Positions 21 through 25,431 of a stretch of DNA of 32,000 nt are shown here, in pieces. The translations under genes were made by a program, and so were the position numbers. Where the stretch lies: NCBI RefSeq assembly GCF_000341895.1, contig NC_020409.1:2190001-2222000 (forward strand), in the 5' to 3' direction. The number at the start of each line of letters is the position of its first letter. Position 1 is the stretch's first letter. The stretch comes from Pseudodesulfovibrio piezophilus C1TLV30. GTDB taxonomy: Bacteria; Desulfobacterota; Desulfovibrionia; Desulfovibrionales; Desulfovibrionaceae. Under the pieces are notes generated by a model that was given only the letters and a program-made list of their open reading frames with translations, ran no database searches and had not been told where the DNA came from.

Positions 21-1100
21 GTGACACCCACTCAAACCAGTGCCCCCCAGACAGAGCTGACGCATCTGATCATCTATGCCAATGCCATATGCAACGCCCA
101 TTGTCTCATGTGTGATGTGGGCCGGGAGTCGGATATAGGCATTGCCCGACCGCTTGTTGGTGCACCCAGATACATGAGCCTTGCCCTGCTGGAAAAGCTC
201 CTTGATGATCCCCTGGTGACAGAGCGCACTCCCCGGTGCAACGTCTATTTCGTGATGACAGAACCGCTCCTGACCCCGCACCTGCCGGAGATGCTCCGGG
301 CGGCAAAAGAGCGGGGACACGCGGTCTTTCTGACAACCAACGGACTGTTACTGGAAAAACGGGCTGCGGAGATAGCCCCGTACATCGACAACATCCAGAT
401 CTCATTGGATGGCCCCGAAGCCGTCCATGACGCCATCAGAGGTCCGGGATTTTTTCGTGCCGCGCTCAAGGGACTTCAGGCGATTCGCGCCCTGCGACCG
501 GATGTGGAACTCGTCATCAACACGACCATTTTCAACCGCACCGCCCCAACCCTGACCGAGTTGGCATCCATTCTCGATGACCTCGGCGTCCGTATTGACA
601 TGTTCAAGGTGCAGGGTCTCGACTATGTCTCCGGTCCGATGCAGGCCCGGCATAACGCCTGTTATCCGAAAATCGAGCAATCCGCGTCCACCGAGGGGGA
701 TGTGCTCGATTTTGACGCCATTGATTTCGACGACCTCGCCCGCCAACTCTCCGAGCTGCGAGACTGGAAACCCAGAAACATAGACAGCATAGGCTTCAAG
801 CCCCCCTTTACCTCGGCCGATGAACTCCGTTCCTACTACACCGAAAATGGAGACAAACACGAGTCATGGCATACCTGCCTGACCCCGTTCGTCGCCATGG
901 CCGTCAACACGGCCGGCGAATGTTTTTTCCACATCAGATGTTTCAACGGCTATCAGCTGGGGAATGCCTCGACTCAACCCCTGGCTGCTATTTTCCATGG
1001 CCACAAGGCCAATGATTTCCGCCGTCAACTCACCGAAAGTGATTTCTGTTTTCCGGCCTGCACCCGCTGTTGCGGCGTCAATCCGGTTGACAGGGTTTAG
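21..1100 (+). CDS. Radical SAM enzyme with C-terminal SPASM/twitch-type Cys-rich domain
   Basis: GTG start preceded by GGAGAG. Radical SAM cluster motif C24-x3-C28-x2-C31 in 'YANAICNAHCLMCDVG' (nt 90-113). C-terminal Cys cluster 'CLTPF..GECFF..CFPACTRCCGV' is typical of auxiliary Fe-S (SPASM/twitch) domains. Confidence 0.85.
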   Translation: MTPTQTSAPQTELTHLIIYANAICNAHCLMCDVGRESDIGIARPLVGAPRYMSLALLEKLLDDPLVTERTPRCNVYFVMTEPLLTPHLPEMLRAAKERGHAVFLTTNGLLLEKRAAEIAPYIDNIQISLDGPEAVHDAIRGPGFFRAALKGLQAIRALRPDVELVINTTIFNRTAPTLTELASILDDLGVRIDMFKVQGLDYVSGPMQARHNACYPKIEQSASTEGDVLDFDAIDFDDLARQLSELRDWKPRNIDSIGFKPPFTSADELRSYYTENGDKHESWHTCLTPFVAMAVNTAGECFFHIRCFNGYQLGNASTQPLAAIFHGHKANDFRRQLTESDFCFPACTRCCGVNPVDRV

Positions 1101-1140
1101 GGTTTCCGGAACCGATCACCCGTAATCAGGAGCATTTCAC

Positions 1141-1578
1141 ATGAACGAAAAAGACATCATCATCGGATATACCACCGGAGTTTTCGATCTGTTTCATGTC
1201 GGGCACCTGAACCTGCTGCGCAAGGCCAAGGCCCTGTGCGACCGGCTCATCGTCGGCGTGACCACCGATGAATTGGTCGCTTACAAAAACAAACGAGCGG
1301 TGATCCCATTTCACGAACGCATGGAAATAGTGCATAGCATCGACTACGTGGACACAGTTGTCCCACAGGAAGATATGGATAAAATGAAAGCCTGGGACAA
1401 ACTTAAATTCGACATCATGTTCGTGGGCGATGATTGGCACGCAACAGAAAAATGGGAAGGATACGAAACGGAGTTCAAGCAAAAAGGCGTGAAGATCGTC
1501 TATCTGCCCTATACCAAAACGACTTCCTCCACCCTGATCAATGAAGTGCTGCTCAAACTGCGCGACAACACGCTCTAG
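1141..1578 (+). CDS. tagD: Glycerol-3-phosphate cytidylyltransferase (TagD/TarD-like; makes CDP-glycerol)
   Basis: 145 aa. N-terminal HxGH nucleotidyltransferase signature 'GVFDLFHVGHLNLLRKA'. C-terminal 'YTKTTSSTLI' resembles the RTEGISTT motif of the family. AGGAG RBS lies upstream. Confidence 0.85.
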   Translation: MNEKDIIIGYTTGVFDLFHVGHLNLLRKAKALCDRLIVGVTTDELVAYKNKRAVIPFHERMEIVHSIDYVDTVVPQEDMDKMKAWDKLKFDIMFVGDDWHATEKWEGYETEFKQKGVKIVYLPYTKTTSSTLINEVLLKLRDNTL

Positions 1579-1587: not shown

Positions 1588-3522
1588 ATGTGCGGATTTC
1601 TCGGCATAGTAGCCAGCCAGGCTCTCTCAATTGATCGCGAACGGTTTCGCCGCGCCCTGAACCTGCAAAGGCACAGGGGGCCAGATGGTTCCGGCGTGCA
1701 TTGGGGCCCTCGCCACGCCCTCGGGCACAGACGGCTTTCCATCATTGACCTAAATGACCGTTCCGCACAGCCTATGTGTACCGAAGACGGGCGGTTCTGC
1801 CTCGTTTTCAATGGCGAGATATACAATTTCAAGGAAATCCGATCGCGACTGCACGGGCTGGGCCACCGCTTCTGCCGCGAAAGTGATACCGAGGTTCTGC
1901 TGCACGCCTATGAAGAATGGGGAACGGATTGTCTGGAGATGATGCAGGGCATGTTCGCCTTTGCCGTACTCGATACCGCTTCGGGAAAAGTCGTCCTGGC
2001 TCGAGACAGGCTGGGCATCAAACCACTCTATTATTCGCGCCATGGAGAGACGCTCTATTTTGCCTCGGAAATCAAATCCATCCTTGCCATGCTGGATGGC
2101 ATGCCCGCATTCAATGAACGGGCTGCGGCCTCGTACCTTTCCTTTCGCCAACCCCTAGAACAGGACACCTTTTATCAGGGTATCCATTCCCTGCGTCCCG
2201 GCCACATCCTGACCTTTGACAAGGAAAGACTCCACACAATCCAGTGGTGGGATTGCGCACAATGCATCGAAGAACAGCGTGATGACAAGGGAGAGGCCTT
2301 TTATGCGGACAGACTTCGTGAACTGCTGACCTCTTCCATACGCTATCGAATGATCTCGGACGTGCCCGTGGGCGCATATCTTTCCGGGGGAGTCGATTCC
2401 AGCGCCATCGCCACGATCATGGCCGGACTGTCCTCTGATCCCGTCTCCACTTTCACCATCGGATTTACCGAAGACGGGTACAACGAATTTCCCTATGCCC
2501 GCATGGTTGCGGAACAGGCCGGGACGACGCACCACGAAATACTTCTGGGAAGCACTGCCTACATGGAAGACATGGAAAGACTGATCCGACTCAAGGACGC
2601 ACCCCTTTCCGTGCCCAACGAAATCCCGTTGAACAGGATGTCCGCAGAGCTCAAACGCCACATCACCGTTGTGCTTTCCGGGGAAGGCGCGGATGAACTC
2701 TTCTGGGGATACGGCCGGATTTTCCGCTCGGCTTTCGACTACCAACGGATGGTCGCTCTGGAGAACGGCGAATATCCACCGCAGGAAGCCAGCCAACTCA
2801 CTGCCGCACTGACCGCCGCCTACGGCCAGGCGATATTCCCGTCCAAGCTCGACCATTTTCTTGCCAAATACCGCTATGTTCCCTTGTGCGAACAACAGCG
2901 CCTGCTCGATAAGGATGTGGTCCGATCCGCTGAGGTCATGCACCGAAAGACCTTTTCCCGTCTCTTTCGGACAGCCGGGGACGACTACGCCAACAACATC
3001 GCTTATGCCTTCACCAAAATACACCTTGAGGGGCTGTTGCGCCGCGTGGATTCCTCCACCATGGCGACTTCGGTTGAAGCCCGTGTTCCCTTCCTGGACC
3101 ATCGGTTGGTGGAATTCGCCTTCAGCGTGCCTTCGCACCACAAGTTACGCTGGAAATCTCCCGAGGCAGAGCAGGCCGGGAAACTGCTGGCAGCCGATGA
3201 TATCTCCGAACACCTCGATATACCCAAGTACATCCTGAAAAAATCGGCATCGAAACTTCTTCCCCATGACATTCTGTATCGAAAAAAGCAGGGATTCCCG
3301 GTCCCGCTTGATCAATGGGCCGGAGGCGACCTCAAAGACAAGGCTTCAGAAATCCTGCTCTCGCAAGAAGCACGACAGCGAGGTCTCTATGAGATGAAAA
3401 ACATGAAGAAACTCGTCGCCAACCTCGGTCCTCGGACTCCCCACAAGGATGCCCTAAAAGTCTGGATGCTCCTGAATCTCGAAGTATTTCTCTCCACCTG
3501 TTTCACAAGGCCGGTCCTGTAA
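1588..3522 (+). CDS. asnB: Asparagine synthase (glutamine-hydrolysing)-family amidotransferase
   Basis: Met-Cys2 Ntn nucleophile 'MCGFLGI'. Glutaminase motifs 'HRGPDG', 'RLSIIDL', 'NGEIYN'. PP-loop 'YLSGGVDSS' in the synthetase domain. 644 aa. Confidence 0.85.
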   Translation: MCGFLGIVASQALSIDRERFRRALNLQRHRGPDGSGVHWGPRHALGHRRLSIIDLNDRSAQPMCTEDGRFCLVFNGEIYNFKEIRSRLHGLGHRFCRESDTEVLLHAYEEWGTDCLEMMQGMFAFAVLDTASGKVVLARDRLGIKPLYYSRHGETLYFASEIKSILAMLDGMPAFNERAAASYLSFRQPLEQDTFYQGIHSLRPGHILTFDKERLHTIQWWDCAQCIEEQRDDKGEAFYADRLRELLTSSIRYRMISDVPVGAYLSGGVDSSAIATIMAGLSSDPVSTFTIGFTEDGYNEFPYARMVAEQAGTTHHEILLGSTAYMEDMERLIRLKDAPLSVPNEIPLNRMSAELKRHITVVLSGEGADELFWGYGRIFRSAFDYQRMVALENGEYPPQEASQLTAALTAAYGQAIFPSKLDHFLAKYRYVPLCEQQRLLDKDVVRSAEVMHRKTFSRLFRTAGDDYANNIAYAFTKIHLEGLLRRVDSSTMATSVEARVPFLDHRLVEFAFSVPSHHKLRWKSPEAEQAGKLLAADDISEHLDIPKYILKKSASKLLPHDILYRKKQGFPVPLDQWAGGDLKDKASEILLSQEARQRGLYEMKNMKKLVANLGPRTPHKDALKVWMLLNLEVFLSTCFTRPVL

Positions 3523-4724
3523 TGCCTCTTGTCCACTTCCTCATAAAATGGACCAGAATATACTGGTTCAGATTGCTGAAAAGAATCTGCCTGAGCCACA
3601 CTCGCTCTCAGAAGCTGTGGGTCTTCGGCGCGAGGGAAAGATTCCGCTATGACGAAAACTCGAAGCACCTTTTCGAATATGTCAATCGGCATAGGCCAGA
3701 TATCCACGCGGTCTGGCTGACGCGCGACCCGGCCATACGGCACCACCTGCGGGCACAAGGACTGGATGCGCGCATGTCCCACAGCATCGGCGGCTACACG
3801 GCGCAGTTCATGGCGGGCATATCGTTTGTGAACGTCTCATATCGGGATGTGAACTGGTTTCTGCTCTATGGATGCCCCGTGGTCCAACTCTGGCACGGCA
3901 CCCCCATGATGGAGAACGACCTCAAATATCTTGGGGAAGAATACGCTTTCGTGACCCTTGCTTCCGAAGAATTCCTGACAAAGCAACACCTTGGTGACCC
4001 GAAGGTCTTTGATTTTCGACTCACGGGCTACCCTCGGGCTGACAGCCTTGCCCGAACGGACATCGCCCCGGCAGTCAAACATCTCAAGCAACGATACGGA
4101 TTTGATAAACTGGTCCTCTACGTGCCCACACATCGCAGACCACCGCAATGGGACGGCAAAGGAAAACCTGTCGTCGAATATGGACTCTTCGGTCCCTATG
4201 GCTTTGATTTCCATGCCATGGAAGCCCTTATGGAAAAGCACAATGCCCTGTTCGTTCTCAAGCTCCACCCCCTGCAACCTTTTGCGGACGCGGCATCGGC
4301 AGAACACTTCGAAAACAGCTCCTTCATGCATCTGGCAGCCCATGACGACCCGTTGGCGGACGTCTTCGACTTCATGCGATCCACGGATGTCCTGATAACG
4401 GATTTTTCATCCATCTATTTCGATTTCCTACTCCTTGACCGCCCGGTGATTTTCACGCCTTTTGATATCAAGGAGATGGAGTCTACACGGAAATTCAGGT
4501 TCGACTACAACGAGATTACCCCCGGTCCCCAGGCTCACGACTGGCCGGAGACACTCAGACATCTCGACCAGATACTCAATGGCGCGGACGAATTCAGCGA
4601 GTCACGACAGCGCGTCTGTCGCCGTTTCAATCACCACGGAGACAACAACAGGTGTTCCCGCGTTGTCAATGAAGCCATGCAGTATCTCCTGACCATGGAA
4701 AGCAAAAGCAAGGAACAATCATGA
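3522..4724 (+). CDS. CDP-glycerol glycerophosphotransferase family protein (TagB/TagF-like)
   Basis: Family-typical motifs 'LWVFGARE..DENSKHLFEYV', 'VLYVPTHR', 'LKLHP', 'DVLITDFSSIYFDFLLLDRPVIF'. The start overlaps the asnB stop (TAATG). Confidence 0.8.
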   Translation: MPLVHFLIKWTRIYWFRLLKRICLSHTRSQKLWVFGARERFRYDENSKHLFEYVNRHRPDIHAVWLTRDPAIRHHLRAQGLDARMSHSIGGYTAQFMAGISFVNVSYRDVNWFLLYGCPVVQLWHGTPMMENDLKYLGEEYAFVTLASEEFLTKQHLGDPKVFDFRLTGYPRADSLARTDIAPAVKHLKQRYGFDKLVLYVPTHRRPPQWDGKGKPVVEYGLFGPYGFDFHAMEALMEKHNALFVLKLHPLQPFADAASAEHFENSSFMHLAAHDDPLADVFDFMRSTDVLITDFSSIYFDFLLLDRPVIFTPFDIKEMESTRKFRFDYNEITPGPQAHDWPETLRHLDQILNGADEFSESRQRVCRRFNHHGDNNRCSRVVNEAMQYLLTMESKSKEQS

Positions 4725-5836
4725 CATTCGTCATACTGACATTCAATTACATCCCCTTCATCGAGTCTCTTTACCGAGCCAATCCCGACTTGCGGGACAT
4801 GCCTTATGCAGAGCAACTCGAAACGATCCATGTCGCCTCCTTCGGTACAGCGGATTTCTACAGCCACGGGCTGCGCGCACAAGGGCATGAAGCCACTGAT
4901 ATCATCTGGAACAATGAAATTCTTCAATTGACGTGGTGCCGGGAATACGCACCAGACCTGGTCGAAAGATTTTCCACACGACAGGATACCACCGCATGGC
5001 TCATGGAAGTGATGCTTCGGCAGATCGAAGCTGTACACCCTGATGCCCTGTTTCAAATTCCGGTCTATGACTTCCCGCCCGAGATCATGGAGCAACTCAA
5101 GTCTCTGACCCGTCTTTACATCGGACAATGCGCCTATCCTTTGCGTGAAGACAGATCGCTGCACCCATTTGACCTCATGCTCTCCTCTCTCCCCAACTAT
5201 GTGGAACGATTTCGATCCATGGGCCTGAAGGCCGATCTGCTCCCGCTGGGATTCGACCCCCGCATCGAAGAAAGACTGCCCCGGATGGACCGTGACCATG
5301 ACGTTGTTTTCATCGGTGGCTTCTGCGAACAACACATGCCGCGCACCCTTTTTCTGGAGCAGGTTATCCAGGGACTGGGATCGGATGTCAGCTTTGAATG
5401 CATCGGGTATACCGACAGGGATGGATTGGCCCCGGATTCGCCCATTCGCGAACGGCTCAAAGAACCTCTCTGGGGTCTGGATATGTTTGCCACACTCAAG
5501 CGAGCCAAGATTGTCCTGAACGCCCATGCGCCATGGGCCGAGGGATATGCCAACAACATGCGCCAGTACGAAGCCACCGGGATGGAAGCATGCTTGCTCA
5601 CCCACCACGCTCCGAATATCGACGACTTCTTCATTCCCGGCAGGGAAATCGCCACCTATGATTCCGTCCACTCATGTGTCAATGCTCTGCACGGACTCCT
5701 TTCGGACACTGCCGGGCGGCAGGAACTGGCGCACAATGGGCATCAAAGGACCATCACCGACCACACCTATGCCGACCGCGCCGCGCAGTTGGCAGGGATG
5801 GTTGAGAAACGACTCACCATGAGGGACCGCACATGA
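4721..5836 (+). CDS. CgeB-like (DUF3880 / Glyco_trans_1_2-type) putative glycosyltransferase
   Basis: 'DVVFIGG', 'AKIVLNAH' and 'EATGMEACLLT' resemble the C-terminal GT-B half of the CgeB/spore-maturation glycosyltransferase family. ATGA overlap with the upstream gene. Confidence 0.55.
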   Translation: MTFVILTFNYIPFIESLYRANPDLRDMPYAEQLETIHVASFGTADFYSHGLRAQGHEATDIIWNNEILQLTWCREYAPDLVERFSTRQDTTAWLMEVMLRQIEAVHPDALFQIPVYDFPPEIMEQLKSLTRLYIGQCAYPLREDRSLHPFDLMLSSLPNYVERFRSMGLKADLLPLGFDPRIEERLPRMDRDHDVVFIGGFCEQHMPRTLFLEQVIQGLGSDVSFECIGYTDRDGLAPDSPIRERLKEPLWGLDMFATLKRAKIVLNAHAPWAEGYANNMRQYEATGMEACLLTHHAPNIDDFFIPGREIATYDSVHSCVNALHGLLSDTAGRQELAHNGHQRTITDHTYADRAAQLAGMVEKRLTMRDRT

Positions 5837-6759
5837 GCCATCTTGATGACCATATAGACAAGGCCCGCACCCTTCTCCGCGACGGGCATCCCCGGACCGC
5901 CCTTGACGAACTGATCGAAGCCAAAAGATTGCGGGAACCGCGCCAGGGGCTGGATGTGCTCCGCGCAGATTGTTTCCTGGCCATGGGAGAATATGCCCAG
6001 GCCCATGAATCTCTGCTGGAAGAGCTGCGGTTTTTCCCTGACAATGCCGTGGCCTGCGAGGCATTGAAGAACCTCCCCGGAGACATGAGCCGAGAGATTA
6101 CCCACGAAGACTCGGAATTCGAGCCTCTTCTGGCCAAAATTCGCCCGTATACCATGCTCCCGGTCAATCGACTCTACAATCTCTACCTCCGGGCAAAAGA
6201 GGTATGTGCGCATGATATTCCCGGTGACTTTGCCGAATTCGGCGTGGCGGGCGGAGGCTCCACAGCCATGCTCGCCGCCGTGATCAGAAACCACTCCAGC
6301 CGCCCGCGAACGGTTCACGCCTTTGACACATTCTCGGGGATGCCCGATCCATGCTCTCTCGATTGTCTACACACCGGGACCCCCGCCGACGCCACGGGCT
6401 GGGGAGCGGGAACCTGCGCCGCTCCCACCGAATCCCTGCGCACCATCTGCAATCATCTTGGTGTGTTGGATATGGTCAGAATCAATGAAGGTCTCTTTCA
6501 GGAGACGCTGCCTTTGGTCAAACAAGACATGACAACGCTGGCTTTGCTGCACGGTGACGCCGATTGGTATGAATCCATGCGGTATATCCTCATGACCTGT
6601 TTTGACACCGTGGGCACAGGCGGGGCTGTGATCCTCGACGATTATGGATACTGGGACGGCTGTACCAAAGCCGTCGATGAATTTTTCGCCATCAGCAGAC
6701 AGACCCCGGAACTGCGTCCCATCAAGGGAGGCGGCGGTGTCTGGCTGCGCAAGGAGTAA
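5833..6759 (+). CDS. TPR-like N-terminal segment fused to a TylF/MycF-family (macrocin O-methyltransferase-like) SAM methyltransferase
   Basis: 'PGDFAEFGVAGGGSTAML', 'AFDTFSGMP', 'LHGDADWYES', 'VILDDYGYWDGCTKAVDEF' match TylF-family signatures. The first ~80 aa are helical and TPR-like ('CFLAMGEYAQAHESLLEELRFFPDN'). ATGA overlap upstream. Confidence 0.8.
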   Translation: MSHLDDHIDKARTLLRDGHPRTALDELIEAKRLREPRQGLDVLRADCFLAMGEYAQAHESLLEELRFFPDNAVACEALKNLPGDMSREITHEDSEFEPLLAKIRPYTMLPVNRLYNLYLRAKEVCAHDIPGDFAEFGVAGGGSTAMLAAVIRNHSSRPRTVHAFDTFSGMPDPCSLDCLHTGTPADATGWGAGTCAAPTESLRTICNHLGVLDMVRINEGLFQETLPLVKQDMTTLALLHGDADWYESMRYILMTCFDTVGTGGAVILDDYGYWDGCTKAVDEFFAISRQTPELRPIKGGGGVWLRKE

Positions 6760-10419: not shown

Positions 10420-10420
10420 A

Positions 10421-10440
10421 TTCAAGAGAGTTCAAGAGTA
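10421..10440. repeat. Tandem direct 10-mer (ttcaagagag / ttcaagagta) immediately after the operon A stop codon
   Basis: Read directly: TAG stop at 10417-10419, then two adjacent copies differing at one position. Confidence 0.5.
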
Positions 10441-10688
10441 AACACAGAACCACGGCAGAACATCACAAGCCTGCTTCTGCCACAATGAGTATCAGGCCAG
10501 CAACCAATCGGGCGAGGGCATATTTCATCGTCCCAAAAGCCACGAGACCAGGGCAAACGCGCTGCACACCCGAGGTTCCTGTCCGTGCACGTACGGCTCC
10601 ATGTGAAAGAAAAGTCCCTTTCCAACGCCACAATCTCACGGAGAACCTTTATGGACGGACAGAAGATTCTCCGTGCTCTAAAGTCATT

Positions 10689-15024: not shown

Positions 15025-15026
15025 CC

Positions 15027-18076: not shown

Positions 18077-19255
18077 ATGAAAAAATACTTTATTGATGAC
18101 AACACCTGCACCGCCTACAAGCTGATCCTGAGTCGAGTGGCCAGCTATTACGATGCCAACGGTTGGCAACTTGTTCGAAGCGCCGCCGATGCCGATCTCG
18201 CCATTGCCGGATGTTGCGCAGCCTTCCACAGTCTGGAGGAAGAAGCACTGAACATCGCCAGGAGCGTGGTGAATGAAGGGGCCGGAGAAACAGTCCTCTT
18301 CGGCTGCCTGACCACGGTTTCCCCGGAACAGGCCAAGGCACTGGGAGTGGATCATGTCATTGCTTCGCCGCAATGGAAACGACTGACTGATTTCGTTACC
18401 AACCCGGTGGTGGAACTGGATGCGATTCCGCCATCCACCGAGTTCCGGCTTCAGGAAGAATACCGCATATACGATCCGGGCAAACAGTTTGTCCTGCTAC
18501 AGACTGGGTGTTCCTCGGATTGCCCCCACTGCCCGCACAAACTCGGCATCGGCCCCTTGAAAAGTGTTCCCATGCAAACTCTCCTTGATCAATGTGAAAC
18601 GCTCGTTAAAAACGGCGCGCACACCATCGTGCTGACCGGAAACGACACCGGATCATGGGGAACGGATACGGGCGAGGGGACTTACGTGGAGCTTCTCCGC
18701 GCCATCCTTGATTTTCCGGTCAAGCTGCATCTGGCCCAGATCAACCCCGACTGGGTCGCCCTCTATAGTGAAGCGCTTCTCGATCTGCTGACCGATGACC
18801 GGATCAAGGATTTCCAGACACTGATTCAGACCACCAGCCCGCGTCTGCTTGAAATAATGAATCGCGCTCCCGTCGTCCTTGAACTGGAAGACTTCTTCCT
18901 GCGTCTGCGGGAACTCCGTCCCGATATTTTCCTGCGTACGGACCTGATCATCGGCTATCCGACTTCAACAGAAGAAGAAGACCGGGCCACCGTGGCCTTC
19001 ACGGCCCGCTTTTTCGATGAAGTAGCCGTCCATGCCTACGAACGGTTCCCACATACGCGCATCGAAACCATGGGGCTGCCCTTCCACTCCCGCGAGGTCA
19101 TCGTCGGGCGGGTGGATGAAGCTGTGAACACACTGGAAAAGAGCGGTACCATTCTCGTCCACCGTGGCGGACAGGTCTATGAAACCATGGTCGCCATCGA
19201 ACAACCGAAAAAAACGATACAAACCGATCGGGAACGATCCCCGGGTCAACAATGA
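18077..19255 (+). CDS. MiaB/RimO-like radical SAM enzyme (methylthiotransferase architecture)
   Basis: N-terminal domain with three spaced Cys (C11, C46/C47, C77) like the UPF0004 auxiliary-cluster domain. Radical SAM 'CSSDCPHC' at nt 18509-18532. 392 aa. Confidence 0.75.
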   Translation: MKKYFIDDNTCTAYKLILSRVASYYDANGWQLVRSAADADLAIAGCCAAFHSLEEEALNIARSVVNEGAGETVLFGCLTTVSPEQAKALGVDHVIASPQWKRLTDFVTNPVVELDAIPPSTEFRLQEEYRIYDPGKQFVLLQTGCSSDCPHCPHKLGIGPLKSVPMQTLLDQCETLVKNGAHTIVLTGNDTGSWGTDTGEGTYVELLRAILDFPVKLHLAQINPDWVALYSEALLDLLTDDRIKDFQTLIQTTSPRLLEIMNRAPVVLELEDFFLRLRELRPDIFLRTDLIIGYPTSTEEEDRATVAFTARFFDEVAVHAYERFPHTRIETMGLPFHSREVIVGRVDEAVNTLEKSGTILVHRGGQVYETMVAIEQPKKTIQTDRERSPGQQ

Positions 19256-20190
19256 ACGGCACTCTCCCCAAAATAGAATGGAATGATGAGGTCCTGATCC
19301 CAAGTCACGTCAATATCGAGACACTCTTCGGCTGCAATGCGCACTGCACCATGTGCATCATTGACCAACCCAGCAAGCGACGAAAGGGAGTGATGAAGGA
19401 ACCTCTGTTTCGACATATCATCGACTCCCTCAAACCCCATCGCACCCAGATTCAGAAACTGGACCTCTTCGCCCTGGGCGAACCACTACTCGACCCGGAT
19501 ATCATGGCGCGTATCCGCTATGCCAAGCAGCAGGGCTTCACCGGTATGGCCATCTCGACCAACGCGGACCTGCTGACTGAGCACATGGCGAAGGAACTGC
19601 TCGACACCGGCATAGAAACAGTCATATTCAGCATCGACGGTATTGATGCACCAACCCATGAAGGTATCCGCCGAGGGGTTTGCTTCGAACGTGTCGTCGC
19701 CAATGCCGAGCGAATCATCGCCATGCGCGATCAAGGGAATTTTCCGACTCGTTTTGTTGTTCGTTTCATTCGCCAAGAGTGCAACCGGGATCAATGGCAA
19801 CCATTCGAGCAATACTGGAATGCCCGTCTCTCTGCGGACCGGAACGATCTGCTCCTGAGTTACAACATCCACACCTGGGGTGGGGCCGTCGACTCCAAAG
19901 AAAACGTTCTGGGAGTCTCCCAACGCGATGAAACCATAGAAAAAAGTCCCTGCCATCACATCTTCAACCAGATGATTATTCTGGCGGATGGTACGGTGCC
20001 CCTCTGTTGTGAAGATTTCCTCAATGCAGACATCGCAGTAGGCAATGTATCCGAAACCGATCCCATTGCCGTCTTCAACTCGCCCAGGATGCAGCACCTG
20101 AGAAAAATGCATGTAAACGGAGTCAAGAGCACGATCCCCATGTGCGGCCAATGCACCGTGCTGTATAGTGAAGCGGAGCGACAAGGATAA
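19252..20190 (+). CDS. Radical SAM enzyme with SPASM/twitch-type C-terminal domain (distant paralog of 21-1100)
   Basis: 'FGCNAHCTMC' (nt 19333-19356), 'LGEPLLDP', C-terminal 'SPCHH..DGTVPLCCEDF..IPMCGQCTV'. ATGA overlap upstream. Confidence 0.85.
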   Translation: MNGTLPKIEWNDEVLIPSHVNIETLFGCNAHCTMCIIDQPSKRRKGVMKEPLFRHIIDSLKPHRTQIQKLDLFALGEPLLDPDIMARIRYAKQQGFTGMAISTNADLLTEHMAKELLDTGIETVIFSIDGIDAPTHEGIRRGVCFERVVANAERIIAMRDQGNFPTRFVVRFIRQECNRDQWQPFEQYWNARLSADRNDLLLSYNIHTWGGAVDSKENVLGVSQRDETIEKSPCHHIFNQMIILADGTVPLCCEDFLNADIAVGNVSETDPIAVFNSPRMQHLRKMHVNGVKSTIPMCGQCTVLYSEAERQG

Positions 20191-20196
20191 CCACTC

Positions 20197-21321
20197 ATGC
20201 ATGACCAACTGACACTCATACTCCCTATCCGCGACCGAATTCACTTCATGCGCCGATGGTTTCAGCAGGCGAGAACATTTTCGTTTCCATGGAGAATCCT
20301 GGTCGCCGATGGAAGCCAGGGCGCCCAGAACTCGGATTTTTTCGCCTGCCCGGAACATTTTCAAGGGCTGCATGTGGAACATCAGAAGTACGAGACACCG
20401 GATGATTACGGCGGATTCATGGAGCGTATCTCCCTTTCACTGGATAAAGTGGAAACCCCCTATGTGCTCATTGTTGCTGATGATGACTTTTTCCTGCCAT
20501 CCGGTATTCTGCGCAGCCTGCGATTTCTGGAAAAAAATCCTGACTACATGGCGGCGAGAGGGGAGATCCTTGATTTCACCATTCCCGGAAAAAATGGTCA
20601 GAATGCCTATGGCGACATGGAATTCTATTTTTCGGAACATTACAATGTACCGTCGAGAAACGCTGACAACGTCTATACCCGTTTGGCCCAGCAGTGTGAC
20701 AAATATTGTTGTGCCCTGACAACTGTCCAACGCACGGCCCAGGCCCGCAAACGGTTCAGCTACCTGCGGCACATCAATGCCAGGGAAACGTGGCTTCCTC
20801 TGATGTTCGATGATTTCGGCCTGCTGGCTCAAGGGAAAACCCACCATGGGAAGCATCTCTATGGACTGAAACAGACCAACGCCATCGGCAGTGAAGCCCA
20901 TGCCATCTATGAAAAGGACCCGAGCATCCTCGACTGGATGACCCGTCCGGGGTGGTCCGAGGAAATGAGTAAACTGGTCCCCTATGTCACACGGGAAATA
21001 GCCGAGGCTCAGAATATTCCCTACGCAACGGCCCATGCCGAATTCAAACGGTTATTCATCGCCCGCTATCTGTCACGGCTGATCAGGGTCAAAGGAAAAG
21101 GCGAAGGCACGGCCCTTCCAGGCACCATTGCCCGCAAATTCGAAAAATGGCGGCATGCTCTTAAGAGAAAAATAATATTCAAAAGTAGATACTTGCGTGC
21201 TCAAGCAGCACTCAAACGCTTTCAAAAATCCGAGGAAGTATCCGAATTACAGACGATCCTCGATATCTGCCGCACCCCGTATGACCCGGCAGGAAAAGCA
21301 CCTCACGGAGAAGCACAATGA
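20197..21321 (+). CDS. Hypothetical protein with GT-A (GT2-like) N-terminal half and a long basic C-terminal tail
   Basis: 'LTLILPIRDR', 'ILVADGS', 'VLIVADDDFF' (DxD-like) recall GT2 motifs. The C-terminal 'RKFEKWRHALKRKIIFKSRYLRAQAALKRF' is Lys/Arg-rich. I cannot name a family confidently. Confidence 0.45.
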   Translation: MHDQLTLILPIRDRIHFMRRWFQQARTFSFPWRILVADGSQGAQNSDFFACPEHFQGLHVEHQKYETPDDYGGFMERISLSLDKVETPYVLIVADDDFFLPSGILRSLRFLEKNPDYMAARGEILDFTIPGKNGQNAYGDMEFYFSEHYNVPSRNADNVYTRLAQQCDKYCCALTTVQRTAQARKRFSYLRHINARETWLPLMFDDFGLLAQGKTHHGKHLYGLKQTNAIGSEAHAIYEKDPSILDWMTRPGWSEEMSKLVPYVTREIAEAQNIPYATAHAEFKRLFIARYLSRLIRVKGKGEGTALPGTIARKFEKWRHALKRKIIFKSRYLRAQAALKRFQKSEEVSELQTILDICRTPYDPAGKAPHGEAQ

Positions 21322-22508
21322 AAATTGGAGCACTGATCCCCGCCCGAAACGGATCCAAACGAATCAAGAAAAAGAATATCAAGATGCTGGGAGACCGTCC
21401 GCTGATCTGCTGGACCATTGATACTCTGCTCCAATCAGCTGTCTTCGACACCATCACAGTCTCCACCGAAAGTGGCGAAGTCGCCAGAGTCGTCAACGAA
21501 TACTATCCGGGCGACACTGTTCGGGTTCTGGATCGTCCCGATTCATTGGCACACGACGATGCCCCTCTTTCCGGGGTTATCGAGCACTACCTCTCAGGCA
21601 ACGACTATGAATACTTTGGCCTGTTCATGCCGACTTATCCATTCAGAAAAGTGGAACAACTGAGAGAAGCTGCCTACGCCATACAGACACGCTATCCCTG
21701 GCGCGTGCTCTCCAAAAGCAGCCGTCAGTATGCTTCAATGGATTACTATTACCCCCATGAAGCAGGCGTCAAGCGGGTCTTCCGGCTCCACCCCATGTTC
21801 TGCCCCTCCTCCAACTCTACCTATGTCTTCTCACACCGGAACTGCTATGATAACAGATGGATGCAATACGGCATCAGCGCGGCTGAACGCCTCTACACCA
21901 TGCAGGTGGACCATATTGAAAGCGTTGACATCGACACCCCTGAGGATTTTGCCAAAGCACAGATGATCGCCGAGGGGAGACCTCCGGTGGTTCGGGCACC
22001 GGTCAGCACCCGGTTCGGCGACTGGGTCACCGTGACTCCGAAGGGAGTTGATGCGGAAAAATTCATGCATTTCGTGGGGCAGGAACGGCTCGCCGACACC
22101 AAAAAGCCGCTTCTGATTCTGGGCACCGCCACGCCCCCTCTCAACTTTTACACGATTATGAACAATGCGGTGCGCATGTATTACATGGATCGAGAGGCCG
22201 CCACCTGCTTTCAGTCCGACAAGGTCAACCTGACAGGCAATTCCGCATACATCCCGAAGCATTTCCTGCATGACCAGCATTACCGGATCATGCGCGTCCC
22301 TGAACTGGGGAAAGACGCGGATCACAAGGTCTGGTCACACGCTGAACAGCGCGAAATGGGCTGGCCTCACGGCGGTTTTCACAATGACAGCCAAGGACTT
22401 TACTTTGGTTCCGAATATGGTGATGACGTCCTGCCAAATGACCGGGTCATCTGGCAGGAGGAGCTTGCCAAGCAGGATTTCTATCTCGATCCCATCGAGT
22501 ACCTCTGA
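21318..22508 (+). CDS. Acylneuraminate/ulosonic-acid cytidylyltransferase-like domain (CTP_transf_3, NeuA/PseF/LegF-type) fused to a ~170-aa C-terminal domain of unknown function
   Basis: 'MKIGALIPARNGSKRIKKKNIKMLGDRPLICWTI' is the hallmark N-terminus of CMP-sugar synthetases. Residues ~225-396 show no motif I recognise. ATGA overlap upstream. Confidence 0.75.
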   Translation: MKIGALIPARNGSKRIKKKNIKMLGDRPLICWTIDTLLQSAVFDTITVSTESGEVARVVNEYYPGDTVRVLDRPDSLAHDDAPLSGVIEHYLSGNDYEYFGLFMPTYPFRKVEQLREAAYAIQTRYPWRVLSKSSRQYASMDYYYPHEAGVKRVFRLHPMFCPSSNSTYVFSHRNCYDNRWMQYGISAAERLYTMQVDHIESVDIDTPEDFAKAQMIAEGRPPVVRAPVSTRFGDWVTVTPKGVDAEKFMHFVGQERLADTKKPLLILGTATPPLNFYTIMNNAVRMYYMDREAATCFQSDKVNLTGNSAYIPKHFLHDQHYRIMRVPELGKDADHKVWSHAEQREMGWPHGGFHNDSQGLYFGSEYGDDVLPNDRVIWQEELAKQDFYLDPIEYL

Positions 22509-22535
22509 TTCTTTTTGTGATTTGACAACAAAAAC

Positions 22536-22569
22536 ATGCCCCCGAAAGGATATTTGCTTTCAGGGGCAT
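22536..22569. terminator. Bidirectional hairpin terminator between convergent operons
   Basis: ATGCCCCCGAAAG (22536-22548) pairs with CTTTCAGGGGCAT (22557-22569): 13-bp stem with one mismatch and an 8-nt loop. It is flanked by A-rich sequence upstream and T-containing sequence downstream, between stops at 22508 (+) and 22602 (-). Confidence 0.6.
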
Positions 22570-22601
22570 AATTCGCTGTTCAGGGAAGCCCCTCCCAAGG
22601 C

Positions 22602-23567
22602 TCAGCCAAGTGCGTGGGCAAAGTCCTCGGGCGCCGCAGCAAGCAGATCCGGTGAGCCGAATTCGGCAAGAACCCGAATAAAATCGGGTCGATCATCCAC
22701 TGTTTTCATGAAATATTTGTAGAACTTCTGCGGTTCGGGTGCATGAGCCAACGCCTGTACCAGATATTCCCGCGCCGCGTCATGGGCTCCCATCCAGAAG
22801 CAGCTCTCTGATCCCCAGAGCATCAATCCTGCCAGGGCACGGTCATGGAGATGGCCGTAACGAGCCATATTACCGGCTTCCGAAAAAAACCGGTCGAGGA
22901 CGTATTGCTTGGCGCTCACATGGTTGACAACTTCGTCCGGGCGACGACTTTTGTTGTCGTGCCAACGATACATGGTGACGAACTCCGGTATGTGGACAAA
23001 GGGGAATCGACAAGCCAGACGAACCCACATCTCATAATCCCCGCAGTCGGTCATGGATTCGTCCACATGAAAACCGACCTCGCGAAATTTCTCGCAACTG
23101 ATAAAGGCAGCTTGAGCCGGCGGCACGATTTCCACACAAAGCAATTGTTCCAGATCGTAGTCAGGGGCGATGAAGTCCGAGATATGGAGGCTCTCACCAT
23201 CGACAATATGCTCGTCACCATAGATGACAGCGGCTTCCGGGTGCGCGGCAAAATGTTTTACCGCCCACGAGCAGGCATGAGGCAGCAGGGCGTCATCCCC
23301 GTTCAAAACTATGAGAATATCACCGGTCACACGCTGCAAAGCCCGGTTCAACCCCTCATATTCTCCACTATCCGGCTCAGAGCGCCAGAAAAGATTCCCA
23401 TGATTAAGGGAGGCAAGATATTCGCCAGTGCCGTCATCAGACCCGGCATCCTGGAGTATATGCTCCACATGAGGCCAATCCTGCGCCTGCACACTTTCAA
23501 TGCATTCCCTAAGATAGGGCATTCCCCGAAAGCAGGTGGTCACGACCGAAACAACTGGTTCACGCAT
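22602..23567 (-). CDS. GT2-family glycosyltransferase with C-terminal TPR-like helical tail
   Basis: 'VSVVTTCFRGMPYLRECIESVQAQDWPHVEHILQDAGSDDGT' and 'VLNGDD' (DxD) are classic GT2 motifs. The tail is 'GAHDAAREYLVQALAHAPEP'. GGGGAA RBS precedes the ATG. Confidence 0.8.
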   Translation of the reverse strand: MREPVVSVVTTCFRGMPYLRECIESVQAQDWPHVEHILQDAGSDDGTGEYLASLNHGNLFWRSEPDSGEYEGLNRALQRVTGDILIVLNGDDALLPHACSWAVKHFAAHPEAAVIYGDEHIVDGESLHISDFIAPDYDLEQLLCVEIVPPAQAAFISCEKFREVGFHVDESMTDCGDYEMWVRLACRFPFVHIPEFVTMYRWHDNKSRRPDEVVNHVSAKQYVLDRFFSEAGNMARYGHLHDRALAGLMLWGSESCFWMGAHDAAREYLVQALAHAPEPQKFYKYFMKTVDDRPDFIRVLAEFGSPDLLAAAPEDFAHALG

Positions 23568-23628
23568 TCGTTTTCCCCACGTCTATTCAAGATCGGGCCA
23601 GCGGCCCGGACACTGTTGCTGCCGGGCT

Positions 23629-25431
23629 TCAGGGAGTGACGCCGCGAGACAGCCGCCGACACCCTTTCTCCGCCCTGGTGAGCAACATCAGAAATTCATC
23701 ACTCATCCGCCTGACATGATCGAAATAATACCGAAGGCCCTCGACCCGAGCCACATTGTCTTCGAGAAAAACCTTGCCGTAAAAATACCTGTTGTCAAAA
23801 GATTGGTAGCGTTCGACGAGATAGGAAATATTATTCTTGTCAAACTCAAGCAAAGCAGCAAAACCTCGGGTCAGAACCACTTCATCCGCTTCCTGCAAAA
23901 CCCCGGCACTCAGATTCCTGACGGTGGACCAGTTGACCTTCTCATTATTGATGAAGGGAAGCACCATGTCGGGTCGTACTTCGGGAGGAGCGGTACGAAA
24001 AAGGTCAGCCACTTCCCTCGTGACTCTGGCATCTGGCAACTCCGGCTCACTTTCGTAGCGAATCCCCTGCCCATACAGGATGCTGCTTTTCGACGTATTG
24101 ATGCACTCGATTCCTGACAGACGAATGACTTCAGCCAGCCAAAGGGCGGCGTCCCGAAAGTTCAATGTTGTATAACTGGTGACACCCTGCTCCGTATGGA
24201 CCGGATAGAGATGAGGGAATCGGGAGGTCTCTCCGGAAAGAGAGCCGTTATCGCGAAAATTCATGGTCCCCTTCGCATAATCCAATCCCCATGGGTTGGG
24301 AGACGAGAGCTGGGCTCCCACGAAAATGCATTTGTCACATCCAAGCAAACAGGCCAGGGAAAAAGCCGTGGAAATCACCGAGCCATGCAACTCCAGATCA
24401 CCCTTGTCGCCAAATAGCACAGGTAAATAATCGCCAAACAGGTACTTCTGACGGAAGCGGTCTCCGCCGAGATCGGAAAAAAGGTGCCCGACAAGGATCG
24501 TCTCGTGAATCCTGGGGATGTTTTTGAAGACCTCGCCCGATGCCGTGGACGCATCATTGATAACGACAAAGTGTGGTTTGATCTTTGCCTCGACCATGGG
24601 CTTGACCGCGTTATTCACACAAATGATCACGGCGCGGTTACGATTCGCCCGGATATATTCCAGTTTCTCGTTCAGGTCCGGTCCGGCTGCCACCAGAATG
24701 GCCGGAAATCCCTTGAGTGCGTTCTCCAGATGCATCACACCTTGGCAGGTCTGGTATGCGATGAGGTTTTCATACACATGTAACTGCTGATCGAACATCA
24801 AATCCCGCTTGATGGGACGAAAAGGAATGGAGCGCAAAAAAAACTGGCTCCCCACCGGATAGATGACGTGCCTATAATGGAGTATTTCTATATACTCTAT
24901 GACCTTCGCGGCCCATTTCCCATAGAGTTCACGAATCCGCTCCGTCTGAAAAAAGACCGGCGTTCCCTGCTCGAAAAGCTCCTTGGGCAGCATCTCCTGC
25001 AAAGCGGGATTAAAAGAATACGGTGCCCCGGTGAAAAAGAAGACTCCACCTCTGTTCAGACGAGAAAGCTGGGCACGGTCGAGATACTCCACAAGCACTC
25101 GGTCATCGGGTTCAAAGACGAGTACGATGGTGTCGGGCTTGTCCAGACAGCGGTCAAGCTCCTCGGAATCGGCACTCCCCAGGAAAACCGTGAACCGGGT
25201 CTTGTCTAGGGCTTCACCGACCGTGATTTCCCCGTCAAAATGCAGATAAGCCGGTTTTTCGGGATTCTGAAAGGGAAATCGATATTTTGGATTCTCATAC
25301 AACGACACCTGGTTGTGCCGGGAAAAGGCATGAGGACCATGATCGGCCGCCCCGTTACCATGGGTCGAGACATCTTCACCCCGGCACAGAATACCGAGTT
25401 CCACCAATGCCGCAATTTTACTGTTTTCCAT
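23629..25431 (-). CDS. maf: Motility-accessory-factor (Maf)/DUF115 (MptE-like) family putative protein glycosyltransferase
   Basis: 600 aa. Central motifs 'ILVAAGPDLNE', 'VIICVNNAVKPMVEAKIKPHFVVINDAS', 'HGSVISTAFSLACLLGCDKCIFVGAQLS' correspond to the G-x-GPSL / PD..v..D / G-SV..A..lA..lG signature of DUF115/Maf proteins. Confidence 0.7.
   Translation of the reverse strand: MENSKIAALVELGILCRGEDVSTHGNGAADHGPHAFSRHNQVSLYENPKYRFPFQNPEKPAYLHFDGEITVGEALDKTRFTVFLGSADSEELDRCLDKPDTIVLVFEPDDRVLVEYLDRAQLSRLNRGGVFFFTGAPYSFNPALQEMLPKELFEQGTPVFFQTERIRELYGKWAAKVIEYIEILHYRHVIYPVGSQFFLRSIPFRPIKRDLMFDQQLHVYENLIAYQTCQGVMHLENALKGFPAILVAAGPDLNEKLEYIRANRNRAVIICVNNAVKPMVEAKIKPHFVVINDASTASGEVFKNIPRIHETILVGHLFSDLGGDRFRQKYLFGDYLPVLFGDKGDLELHGSVISTAFSLACLLGCDKCIFVGAQLSSPNPWGLDYAKGTMNFRDNGSLSGETSRFPHLYPVHTEQGVTSYTTLNFRDAALWLAEVIRLSGIECINTSKSSILYGQGIRYESEPELPDARVTREVADLFRTAPPEVRPDMVLPFINNEKVNWSTVRNLSAGVLQEADEVVLTRGFAALLEFDKNNISYLVERYQSFDNRYFYGKVFLEDNVARVEGLRYYFDHVRRMSDEFLMLLTRAEKGCRRLSRGVTP

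Follow-up and report, generated by a model that had tools for sequence, protein, structure and literature searches.

What does a bacterial gene cluster build when it combines nucleotide-sugar enzymes, soluble glycosyltransferases and radical S-adenosylmethionine (SAM) enzymes with a Maf-type glycosyltransferase? The question is raised by a locus of the deep-sea sulfate reducer Pseudodesulfovibrio (formerly Desulfovibrio) piezophilus C1TLV30, which was analysed in a stretch of 32,000 nucleotides (the window; contig NC_020409.1, positions 2,190,001 to 2,222,000). The locus contains 22 open reading frames (ORFs), called g1 to g22 here, of which 20 lie on the + strand (21-22508) and the last two, a GT2 glycosyltransferase and the Maf-type enzyme, on the - strand. 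An earlier note on this DNA had described a 22-gene island built around the Maf enzyme for cytoplasmic glycosylation of a protein, probably flagellin. The window holds the right-hand two-thirds of a wholly cytoplasmic, glycan-building island of about 31 genes, and the most original component of the locus is a rare heptose/radical-SAM cassette, g10-g18, that crosses phyla. Cytoplasmic Maf-dependent O-glycosylation, with flagellin as the most likely acceptor and a composite glycan that would hold a modified heptose, glycerol phosphate and probably an amidated uronic acid, is given a probability of about one half.

The island and its Maf-type glycosyltransferase

The window proteins are identical to CCH49301-CCH49328 on the 3.65-Mb C1TLV30 chromosome, and three Joint Genome Institute samples hold contigs 99.8-100% identical to the locus. 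The upstream side was followed for 20 kb along a 415-kb metagenome contig, and 6.5 kb were in view downstream. Domains were called by Pfam and NCBIfam hidden Markov model (HMM) scans of the window proteins, and all the domain classes that had been named from the sequence were reproduced for the 22 genes. These comprise three nucleotide-activation enzymes (TagD-like g2, HddC-like g10 and the CTP_transf_3 protein g20), six transferases (TagF-like g4, Glyco_trans_1_2 g5, GT4 g7, TIGR04440 g19, GT2 g21 and MptE-like/DUF115 g22), four SAM methyltransferases (g6, g8, g12 and g16), an AsnB-like amidotransferase (g3), in which an N-terminal MCGF provides the Cys2 nucleophile, and four radical SAM enzymes, each with a CxxxCxxC motif. 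The latter are g1 and g18 (radical SAM and SPASM domains), g9 (B12-binding and radical SAM domains) and the MiaB/RimO-like g17. Outside those classes fall the short-chain dehydrogenases/reductases (SDRs) g11 and g14, the RmlC-like cupin g13, the HddA-like GHMP kinase g15 and a GmhB phosphatase domain fused to g10.

The 22 genes are contiguous, as had been claimed, but overlap is not the rule among them: it occurs at just 9 of the 21 junctions, while 16 are spaced by no more than 14 nt. The GT2 and Maf genes form a two-gene unit of their own on the opposite strand, convergent with the other 20. The size of 22 genes turned out to be an effect of the window edge. Nine further soluble sugar genes lie upstream of g1, and the left end of the island is about 8.9 kb upstream of the window. 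They include genes for a CmcI-type O-methyltransferase, a 296-aa protein without assigned function, a methyltransferase, a nucleotide-sugar dehydrogenase, a GT2 enzyme and an SDR and, beyond a divergent 465-bp region, a GmhA-like isomerase and GalE. Past them come an ELP3-like radical SAM gene, acetyl-CoA synthetase, a LytTR regulator, FtsEX and a GGDEF protein, all genus-conserved or housekeeping genes; the right flank holds NadE, a 159-aa protein, geranylgeranyl reductase and a tRNA.

The island is modular. Module A (the upstream genes and g1-g9) covers uronic acid and amidation, CDP-glycerol with TagF, transferases and tailoring enzymes; module B is the cassette g10-g18; and module C (g19-g22) holds the TIGR04440 transferase, the CMP-synthetase-like enzyme, the GT2 enzyme and Maf. 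Module A and the cassette meet at a 560-bp gap (10420-10979) with 44% G+C, against 51-60% in the neighbouring genes. The published genome annotates an ORFan there, DESPIv2_12074, which explains the extra CCH accession between g9 and g17; no convincing ORF was found in the gap. A claim of horizontal transfer from composition was considered and is not made, as the G+C content of the island, overall and at third codon positions, is the same as that of the flanking core genes. In the genome paper some island genes are only listed as 'not related to other sulfate reducers', and its Table S4 gives DESPIv2_12071, 12072, 12074 and 12082 without interpretation. Its pressure-induced cluster DESPIv2_11206-11237 is an iron-uptake region and was rejected as a counterpart of this island.

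The earlier note had also remarked on the lack of export machinery. A 19-residue Kyte-Doolittle scan detected no multi-pass membrane protein among the 22 window proteins, and hydrophobic 19-mers number at most one per protein in these and in the products of the nine upstream genes. In the 20 kb upstream and 6.5 kb downstream, genes of the wzx, wzy and kps types, for an ABC polysaccharide exporter or for an initiating transferase were not found, and none of the roughly 31 genes of the bounded island encodes a flippase, polymerase, exporter, initiating transferase or ligase. Such genes directly upstream would, by the earlier note, have made this a capsule or O-antigen locus; the check left the note's reading standing. 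These observations bear directly on the main alternative, in which the locus makes an envelope glycan (a lipopolysaccharide O-antigen, a capsule or a teichoic-acid-like glycerol-phosphate polymer), with genes for lipid-carrier priming, flipping or export, and ligation elsewhere in the genome, and in which Maf is a neighbour with a separate job at an insertion hot-spot. TagD/TagF-like proteins, GT2 and GT4 enzymes, a UDP-sugar dehydrogenase with AsnB, and GDP-heptose genes are indeed classic capsule and O-antigen content. However, about 31 consecutive genes between core genes encode no membrane protein at all, Wzx/Wzy or Wzm/Wzt normally lie inside such clusters, and Maf and its GT2 partner are contiguous with the island in P. 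piezophilus. The envelope glycan is therefore considered an unlikely product.

The preferred reading, glycosylation of a protein in the cytoplasm, depends on the identity of g22. Its PF01973 match scores 87.5 bits against a gathering cutoff of 34.6 (residues 220-376), in agreement with the DUF115/Maf assignment made from the sequence, and NCBI's annotation pipeline (PGAP) names it 'motility associated factor glycosyltransferase family protein'. By phmmer, the sequence matches a single Protein Data Bank (PDB) entry, Magnetospirillum Maf 5MU5, around a GxGPS-like motif. An AlphaFold model built from a 29-sequence alignment (pLDDT, the predicted local distance difference test, 90.6; predicted template-modelling score 0.90) has 5MU5 as its top Foldseek match (E 3.3e-15, 591 columns), while archaeal MptE/HPPK kinases match the central domain only (173-196 columns, E about 1e-3) and eukaryotic sialyltransferases match weakly. 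D293 is invariant in the 29 orthologs, and phmmer aligns it with an acidic residue of 5MU5. Membership of the Maf family is thus supported by the profile match and the predicted structure, at the level of domain and fold. Like 5MU5 and Shewanella oneidensis Maf-1, g22 has a three-part architecture, in which the central MAF_flag10/DUF115 domain, holding a GxGPS-like motif, is flanked by an N-terminal domain and a C-terminal helical domain (residues ~470-595 in the model). In Shewanella Maf-1 the C-terminal helical/TPR (tetratricopeptide repeat) domain binds flagellin and makes the enzyme autonomous, and the short Maf-2 needs the adaptor GlfM (bioRxiv 10.1101/2023.12.03.569772). The modelled C-terminal domain of g22 looks like that of the autonomous Maf-1 type. 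The enzyme differs from these Mafs in sequence (a structure-based identity of about 14% to 5MU5) and in belonging to a Desulfovibrionaceae clade that is repeatedly tied to radical SAM genes, a link unreported for characterised Mafs.

Maf orthologs 38-57% identical to g22 occur across Pseudodesulfovibrio, Salidesulfovibrio and Humidesulfovibrio-like genomes. P. portus and P. mercurii share a backbone of reductase, 159-aa protein, Maf and NadE with P. piezophilus. The order of Maf and NadE is swapped among species (window 23629-27275 vs L020 10001-13440 and L022 10001-13425): in P. portus and P. mercurii the two genes converge with overlapping 3' ends and NadE stands between Maf and the island, whereas in P. 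piezophilus Maf stands between NadE and the island and has gained a GT2 partner of the same orientation. The neighbouring sugar islands differ entirely in their genes, with a PseB/PseC-like pair in P. portus and a GFO-hexapeptide gene, DegT and UDP-GlcNAc 2-epimerase in P. mercurii, and neither shows a membrane protein in view. In two more distant, Humidesulfovibrio-type genomes Maf closes, or stands one gene from the end of, a co-directional array of glycosyltransferases, methyltransferases and two to three radical SAM genes, one of the two arrays including a B12-radical SAM gene; the best match to g9 in a related locus is the B12-radical SAM enzyme adjoining Maf in Humidesulfovibrio. GT2 genes in company with Maf were also seen in loci L023 and L027.

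Maf is thus a conserved anchor beside a hypervariable glycan island, and its association with radical SAM genes is a trait of the lineage and not an accident of one strain. The unusual radical SAM density noticed at first is real and recurs beside Maf orthologs in other Desulfovibrionaceae. That the island is built around Maf was not borne out: Maf is a conserved gene of the edge, and the part richest in radical SAM enzymes is a portable cassette. No literature joining 'flagellin glycosylation island' with 'radical SAM' was found. For the envelope glycan, the comparison cuts both ways. The interposition of NadE in P. portus and P. mercurii, where it parts Maf from the variable island, the resemblance of the P. 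mercurii island to a diacetamido-uronic-acid O-antigen pathway, and the tRNA gene near the border, which could be an integration hot-spot, would all suit it. On the other side, the embedding of Maf in an operon of glycosyltransferase, methyltransferase and radical SAM genes in Humidesulfovibrio-type genomes argues that the link is functional and not positional.

The cassette g10-g18

The genes g10-g18 form a rare portable cassette found across distant phyla. On an unassigned contig (L024), g10-g20 are colinear at 39-85% identity, with a GmhA-like gene alongside. A metagenome-assembled genome (MAG) of Omnitrophota (L025) and one of Xenobiia carry orthologs of g11/g12 to g18 at 33-63% identity and in near-identical order, together with TylF- and CmcI-type methyltransferases and a B12-radical SAM gene; TylF-type genes, as g6, are present in L025 and L026. 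The three g17 homologs whose context was examined (L024, L025 and L026) all lie within the same cassette, and a g16 ortholog stands directly upstream of the g17 ortholog in every cassette locus seen. Identities to the cassette orthologs are 64% in L024 and 41% in L025 for g10, 60-78% in L025 and L024 for g11, 61-81% for g15, one of the best-kept genes, and 43-51% in L024, L025 and L026 for g18.

No Maf gene was found within 10 kb of the cassette in the L024, Omnitrophota or Xenobiia loci. In Omnitrophota the cassette lies directly behind a multi-pass ABC exporter gene, and a g1 homolog belongs to another Omnitrophota radical SAM sugar cluster, which has a Wzx flippase; both facts lend something to the envelope-glycan alternative. 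The same clusters also support the reading of cytoplasmic protein glycosylation, since a lipid-linked route, when used, is visible in the cluster as a Wzx or ABC gene.

The product is predicted from the nearest characterised families. The earlier proposal of a heptose component has been strengthened by the GmhA-like gene, the GmhB domain, the HddA-like kinase and the likeness of g11 to GDP-heptose C4-dehydrogenase. The four activation proteins give their best matches to the right families, all under the NCBIfam equivalog cutoffs (GmhA-like 74.7 of 209 bits, HddA 168.9 of 600, GmhB 167 of 178, HddC 80.9 of 300). The best PDB match of g11 is 6VO6/6VO8 at 6.6e-37, the next being at 5e-21; 6VO6 is presumably Campylobacter jejuni Cj1427, the GDP-heptose C4-dehydrogenase. 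GDP-6-deoxy-4-hexulose reductases are among the PDB relatives of g14. An assignment of the SDR beside the upstream GmhA-like gene as a GDP-sugar 4,6-dehydratase, from Pfam, was rejected, since NCBIfam identifies it as GalE (418 bits vs a 262-bit cutoff); the 4-keto step is therefore assigned to g11, and a 6-deoxy product should not be assumed.

A further member of the cassette, g12, matches the D-mycarose 3-C-methyltransferase 4RV9 over its full length (residues 3-412, 3.5e-75) and TcaB9 (5e-60), and shares with the TylC3/TcaB9 enzymes the zinc-binding, SAM-binding and C-terminal domains. The known enzymes of this type act on dTDP-2,6-dideoxy- or amino-hexoses in antibiotic pathways, whereas the context of g12 predicts a nucleoside-diphosphate (NDP)-heptose destined for a surface glycan. 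Judged from these similarities, the product of the cassette would be a nucleotide-activated 3-C-methyl heptose that is further methylated, and the cassette probably makes an undescribed branched seven-carbon sugar by way of radical chemistry. The nearest characterised relatives of g16, g17, g18, g9 and g1 either modify sugars, by oxidation, decarboxylation, dehydration or methylation, or place methylthio groups on RNA or protein (g18 has weak PDB matches to BtrN and BlsE; the PDB relatives of g9 are MgmA, AprD4 and TsrM), and the radical SAM chemistry of the whole island is a prediction of this kind.

These relatives also suggest an alternative, namely a biosynthetic cluster for a small glycosylated natural product or a glycolipid with antibiotic-style sugar tailoring (TylF, TylC3, CmcI, B12-radical SAM, BtrN/BlsE-like and AprD4-like enzymes). 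The nearest characterised relatives of g6, g12, g9, g18 and the CmcI-type enzyme do come from macrolide, aminoglycoside and nucleoside antibiotic pathways. However, the bounded island holds no aglycone-forming enzyme (polyketide synthase, nonribosomal peptide synthetase, terpene or cyclitol synthase), transporter, regulator or resistance gene, and species-variable content anchored by a protein glycosyltransferase better fits the diversification of a surface glycan. A small-molecule product is thus very improbable.

The GDP-heptose pathways of the C. jejuni capsule use GmhA, HddA, GmhB and HddC, followed by the C4-dehydrogenase Cj1427, cupin epimerases and C4-reductases, and heptose O-methylation occurs there as well (PMC10680097). 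C-methyltransferases and radical SAM enzymes are missing from that set, which feeds a Kps-exported capsule (PMC10680097). In the present locus a TylC3-type 3-C-methyltransferase, a second methyltransferase and the MiaB-like and SPASM enzymes are inserted, and there is no exporter.

The MiaB-like enzyme is g17 (392 aa). Like MiaB, RimO and MtaB, it has a UPF0004-type N-domain with three invariant Cys for an auxiliary [4Fe-4S] cluster, the CxxxCxxC core and the overall fold: C11, C47, C77, C145, C149 and C152, which form both cluster-binding triads, are invariant in 27 homologs, and the AlphaFold2 model (pLDDT 94.3) matches MtaB, MiaB and RimO in Foldseek (template-modelling score about 0.75, E 1e-20 to 1e-24). 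Unlike them, it lacks the TRAM domain, in place of which residues 339-387 are helical in the model, and it stays below the family cutoffs (TIGR00089 128 vs 251 bits, TIGR01578 132 vs 314). It belongs to a separate family that is rare, as scores fall away sharply beyond about 16 full-length sequences in an exhaustive profile search of 1.84 billion representatives; some 16-20 clusters make up the family in the strict sense. In all four loci examined, g17 homologs lie in a sugar cassette and not in a translation-related context. No literature linking methylthiotransferases with nucleotide sugars and polysaccharides was found.

A bolder proposal may be put forward, with little confidence. In it, the cassette, from Desulfovibrionaceae to Omnitrophota and Xenobiia, would make an undescribed nucleotide-activated 3-C-methyl heptose, on which g17, paired with g18, would insert sulfur or a methylthio group by radical chemistry or functionalise a C-H bond in some other way; in P. 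piezophilus a Maf-centred cytoplasmic system would place the sugar on flagellin under sigma-28 control. If it were true, g17 would give the methylthiotransferase family its first member that acts on a carbohydrate. Whatever the acceptor, g10-g18 is a portable and experimentally tractable block that could reveal new nucleotide-sugar chemistry, and its study could yield the first carbohydrate substrate for the MiaB/RimO family.

Two further observations on Omnitrophota loci may be recorded. In L025 (16774-18903), Schlafen/AlbA_2-HATPase and Fic genes are inserted between the last cassette SDR gene and a CTP_transf_3 gene and look like a defence or mobile insertion in a sugar cluster. In L003 (1159-12464), two SPASM and three B12-radical SAM genes, an ATP-grasp gene and a U32 peptidase gene adjoin a Wzx flippase gene, which makes it a very radical-SAM-dense polysaccharide cluster.

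Acceptor and proposed pathway

A regulatory link to flagella is suggested, and only suggested, by an element upstream of g10. The published sigma-28 consensus TCTAAAG-N14-GCCGATAA, which may not be valid for Desulfovibrionaceae, was scanned against pre-chosen promoter regions; no Desulfovibrio sigma-28 consensus was found in the literature. The element at 10677 agrees with it at 13 of 15 positions, and a second copy (GCTAAAG-N14-ACCGATTA, locus L016 3067-3114) lies upstream of the first + strand operon of the island. Both copies stand about 265-270 nt before a start codon, so placed as to give leaders of that length, and share the -35 (CTAAAG), the -10 (ACCGATTAA) and a downstream block (AAGTnAATGGTTTGnCC), with a different spacer. 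Their 27-nt core occurs exactly twice in the locus and not once in 24 other loci.

Of the earlier claim of cytoplasmic flagellin O-glycosylation, the full-length Maf and the lack of export genes have stood, while flagellin as the acceptor was not supported and is retained as a proposal. Several results count against this assignment. First, g22 is very divergent, with a structure-based identity of 14% to 5MU5 and 27 bits on the PseD model, far under the NCBIfam cutoff. Second, the flanks, to which the earlier note had looked for flagellin, nonulosonic-acid and gmhA genes, yielded the GmhA-like gene, with no flagellin or flagellar gene in the 20 kb upstream and 6.5 kb downstream or within 10 kb either side of five orthologous Maf loci; maf genes that have been characterised are usually found in flagellar clusters or adjacent to them, and that C1TLV30 itself is flagellated is a presumption. 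Third, no NeuB/PseI/LegI-type (PF03102-type) synthase was found in these flanks or among the roughly 31 island genes, which include only the CMP-synthetase-like g20, so that the usual donor of Maf is without a visible local source. Fourth, the sigma-28 match is significant by position and shows no excess by count over shuffled sequence; the two copies are paralogous and thus not independent; and in five loci the region directly before Maf held neither a sigma-28 nor a sigma-54 site. Fifth, the adjacency of Maf and island could reflect a mere insertion hot-spot, as the position of NadE in P. portus and P. mercurii suggests. Finally, the occurrence of the cassette without Maf in other phyla means that its product is not specific to Maf systems.

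Some of these points would be met by a Maf-dependent cytoplasmic system with another acceptor, for example a pilin, an adhesin or an S-layer-type protein. Such an acceptor would agree with the deep divergence of this Maf clade from the characterised flagellin Mafs, with the position of Maf away from flagellar genes in all six loci examined and with the absence of a GlfM-like adaptor. Every Maf characterised so far acts on flagellin, however; a sigma-28-like element is present on both long operons; and the C-terminal helical domain resembles the flagellin-binding arrangement of Maf-1. A different acceptor is accordingly viewed as rather improbable.

With flagellin as the preferred acceptor, a pathway may be outlined in which acceptor, donor and order of steps are all conjectural. 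The enzyme g22 would recognise its acceptor through its own C-terminal helical domain and, before that protein (most probably flagellin) leaves the cytoplasm, attach a CMP-activated ulosonic acid to its Ser/Thr residues. For the CMP-sugar, g20 would draw on a precursor whose synthesis the island does not encode, and the soluble glycosyltransferases g21, g19, g7, g5 and the upstream GT2 enzyme would extend the glycan. The most unusual building block would be supplied by g10-g18 and the GmhA-like gene, through isomerisation of sedoheptulose-7-phosphate (GmhA-like), 1-phosphorylation (g15), and 7-dephosphorylation and nucleotidylation (g10), then C4 oxidation (g11), 3-C-methylation (g12), epimerisation (g13) and C4 reduction (g14). 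Thereafter g6, g16 and the upstream CmcI-type enzyme may add O- or C-methyl groups, and g17, g18, g9 and g1 may carry out radical SAM tailoring. Glycerol phosphate would be added from CDP-glycerol by g2 and g4, and an amidated uronic acid would come from g3 acting with the nucleotide-sugar dehydrogenase encoded upstream.

The use of glycerol phosphate recalls the TagD/TagF enzymes of wall teichoic acid and the TagF-like capsule polymerases Bcs3 and Cps3D, in which CDP-glycerol synthesis is likewise paired with a glycerophosphotransferase. Unlike in teichoic systems, g4 comprises just the 400-aa catalytic region, with scores far under the TarF/TarB/TarL equivalog cutoffs, and linkage-unit, TagGH and Kps genes are absent; g4 most likely adds single glycerol-phosphate decorations.

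A close known parallel to the locus as a whole is the Group II polar flagellin glycosylation island (Maf-1/Maf-2) of Aeromonas piscicola AH-3, where Maf also lies beside a hypervariable island of soluble glycosyltransferases and modifying enzymes (PMC7874193). There, Maf adds a linking sugar of the pseudaminic acid (Pse) type, which island transferases extend to a composite O-glycan, a variably phosphorylated and methylated heptasaccharide; the gene content of the island varies by strain at a conserved position (PMC7874193). Two differences are evident. The Aeromonas islands adjoin the polar flagellar region and have a full pse pathway including pseI, neither of which is in view here, and they lack the heptose pathway, the TagD/TagF pair and the radical SAM enzymes, all of which are present here (PMC7874193). 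The involvement of a lipid carrier in composite Aeromonas flagellin glycans found no support in that paper.

The locus suggests that environmental sulfate reducers pair a Maf entry enzyme with a far more elaborate sugar toolbox suited to anaerobiosis, in which radical SAM enzymes hold roles taken elsewhere by oxygen-dependent or conventional enzymes. To our knowledge, flagellin glycosylation by Maf has been studied almost only in pathogens, with a single nonulosonic acid or a short extension of it. The present reading also offers a testable explanation for genes that the genome paper only listed.

Features of the locus

The features of the window are collected in the table.

Table. Coordinates in the window, strand and supporting matches of the island genes and adjoining features; bits are given against the family cutoff where stated.
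Feature	Position	Strand	Evidence
g1, radical SAM/SPASM (twitch-type)	21..1100	+	PF04055 9.6e-15, PF13186 4e-05
g2, TagD-like glycerol-3-phosphate cytidylyltransferase (CDP-glycerol supply)	1141..1578	+	PF01467 7.6e-22; best NCBIfam TIGR01518 2e-28, under cutoff; HxGH motif; CCH49301
g3, AsnB-type glutamine amidotransferase	1588..3522	+	PF00733 2.5e-84, GATase_7; TIGR01536 468.8 vs 267 bits
g4, TagF-like CDP-glycerol glycerophosphotransferase	3522..4724	+	PF04464 6e-46, 157.5 bits, profile positions 6-364 of 367 (full Glyphos_transf domain); under TarF/TarL/TarB equivalog cutoffs; PDB TagF 3L7I (5e-12), TarL
g5, GT-B glycosyltransferase (Glyco_trans_1_2, CgeB-like)	4721..5836	+	PF13524 1.1e-25
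g6, TylF-type sugar O-methyltransferase	5833..6759	+	PF05711 1.5e-34
g7, GT4 glycosyltransferase	6762..8174	+	PF00534 1.5e-18, PF13692; DESPIv2_12071
g8, class I SAM methyltransferase	8178..8861	+	PF13489 3.8e-09
g9, cobalamin-binding radical SAM	8875..10419	+	PF02310 8.5e-16, PF04055 1.4e-17; CPFRCNFC motif
Sigma-28-like element heading the g10-g20 operon	10677..10729	+	TCTAAAG-N15-ACCGATTA at 10677-10706 and conserved downstream block
g10, fused HddC-like sugar-1-phosphate nucleotidyltransferase and GmhB-type heptose-1,7-bisphosphate phosphatase	10980..12236	+	PF00483 7e-17, residues 22-154; GmhB part NF006506 167 vs 178 bits, residues 250-396
g11, SDR, probable NDP-heptose C4-dehydrogenase	12233..13291	+	PF01370 2.9e-37
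g12, NDP-4-keto-sugar 3-C-methyltransferase (TylC3/TcaB9 type)	13296..14564	+	PF08421 3.9e-20, PF13489, PF08484 2.8e-43
g13, RmlC-like cupin (C3/C5 epimerase)	14557..15024	+	PF00908 1.3e-10; 85% identical in L024
g14, SDR, probable C4-ketoreductase	15003..15908	+	PF01370 3e-40, PF16363 2e-26
g15, HddA-like GHMP kinase (heptose-7-phosphate 1-kinase)	15905..16885	+	NF049969 HddA 1.9e-49, full length, top NCBIfam match, under cutoff
g16, second methyltransferase, distant g12 paralog	16900..18069	+	PF13489 6e-22, partial PF08484; 23% identity to g12
g17, TRAM-less MiaB/RimO/MtaB-like two-cluster radical SAM	18077..19255	+	TIGR01578, TIGR00089, under cutoffs
g18, radical SAM/SPASM	19252..20190	+	PF04055 4.7e-15, PF13186 4e-11
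g19, TIGR04440-family GT-A-like glycosyltransferase	20197..21321	+	TIGR04440 2.2e-63, 213.9 vs 70 bits
g20, CMP-ulosonic-acid-synthetase-like cytidylyltransferase	21318..22508	+	PF02348 1.8e-19; PDB NeuA 4e-12; PseF TIGR03584 85 vs 205 bits
Hairpin terminator after the Maf-GT2 unit	22535..22570	-	14-bp stem, 7 GC pairs, then T-run
g21, GT2 glycosyltransferase, co-directional with Maf	22602..23567	-	PF00535 3.7e-17
g22, Maf-type (MAF_flag10/DUF115) glycosyltransferase, 600 aa	23629..25431	-	PF01973 1.2e-24
NadE, core gene, right border of the island	25479..27275	+	NF010588 686 bits; syntenic with Maf in P. portus and P. mercurii

In module A, the start of g1 deserves attention. Its CNAHCLMC motif lies at residues 24-31 and is accompanied by a C-terminal Cys cluster. 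The gene call on the metagenome contig is 308 aa long, starting at about 174, and would drop the motif with the region 21-173; a start at or near GTG 21 is thus needed for a functional enzyme. All relatives of g1 in scans of genome and metagenome collections are at most 38% identical, the closest being the gene in the Omnitrophota sugar locus with the Wzx flippase.

In module C, two enzymes carry C-terminal parts of their own. No Pfam or PDB sequence match was found for g19 as a whole, and its C-terminal ~150 aa (20875-21321) gave no Pfam, NCBIfam or PDB match. The C-terminal ~170 aa of g20 (21993-22508) likewise gave no Pfam, NCBIfam or PDB sequence match; this extension is kept in the L024 ortholog, which is 66% identical over its full length.

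On the right flank, the listed NadE ORF of 598 aa probably includes 48 codons too many at its start (25479-25622), other calls giving 550 aa and the NadE model aligning from residue 47. With the start probably downstream, the divergent Maf-NadE intergenic region would measure about 190 bp and not 47 bp. The 159-aa protein (27352-27831) has an N-terminal membrane anchor and no family match, and is kept beside Maf, NadE and the reductase in P. piezophilus, P. portus and P. mercurii; as a membrane-anchored protein of this length it was rejected as a counterpart of GlfM, a soluble 89-residue four-helix bundle. The tRNA gene at 29287-29359 (RF00005, 65 bits; the sole Rfam match) lies about 4 kb from the border of the island, directly upstream of a gene for a small RNA-binding protein of the RNA recognition motif type (29372-29653).

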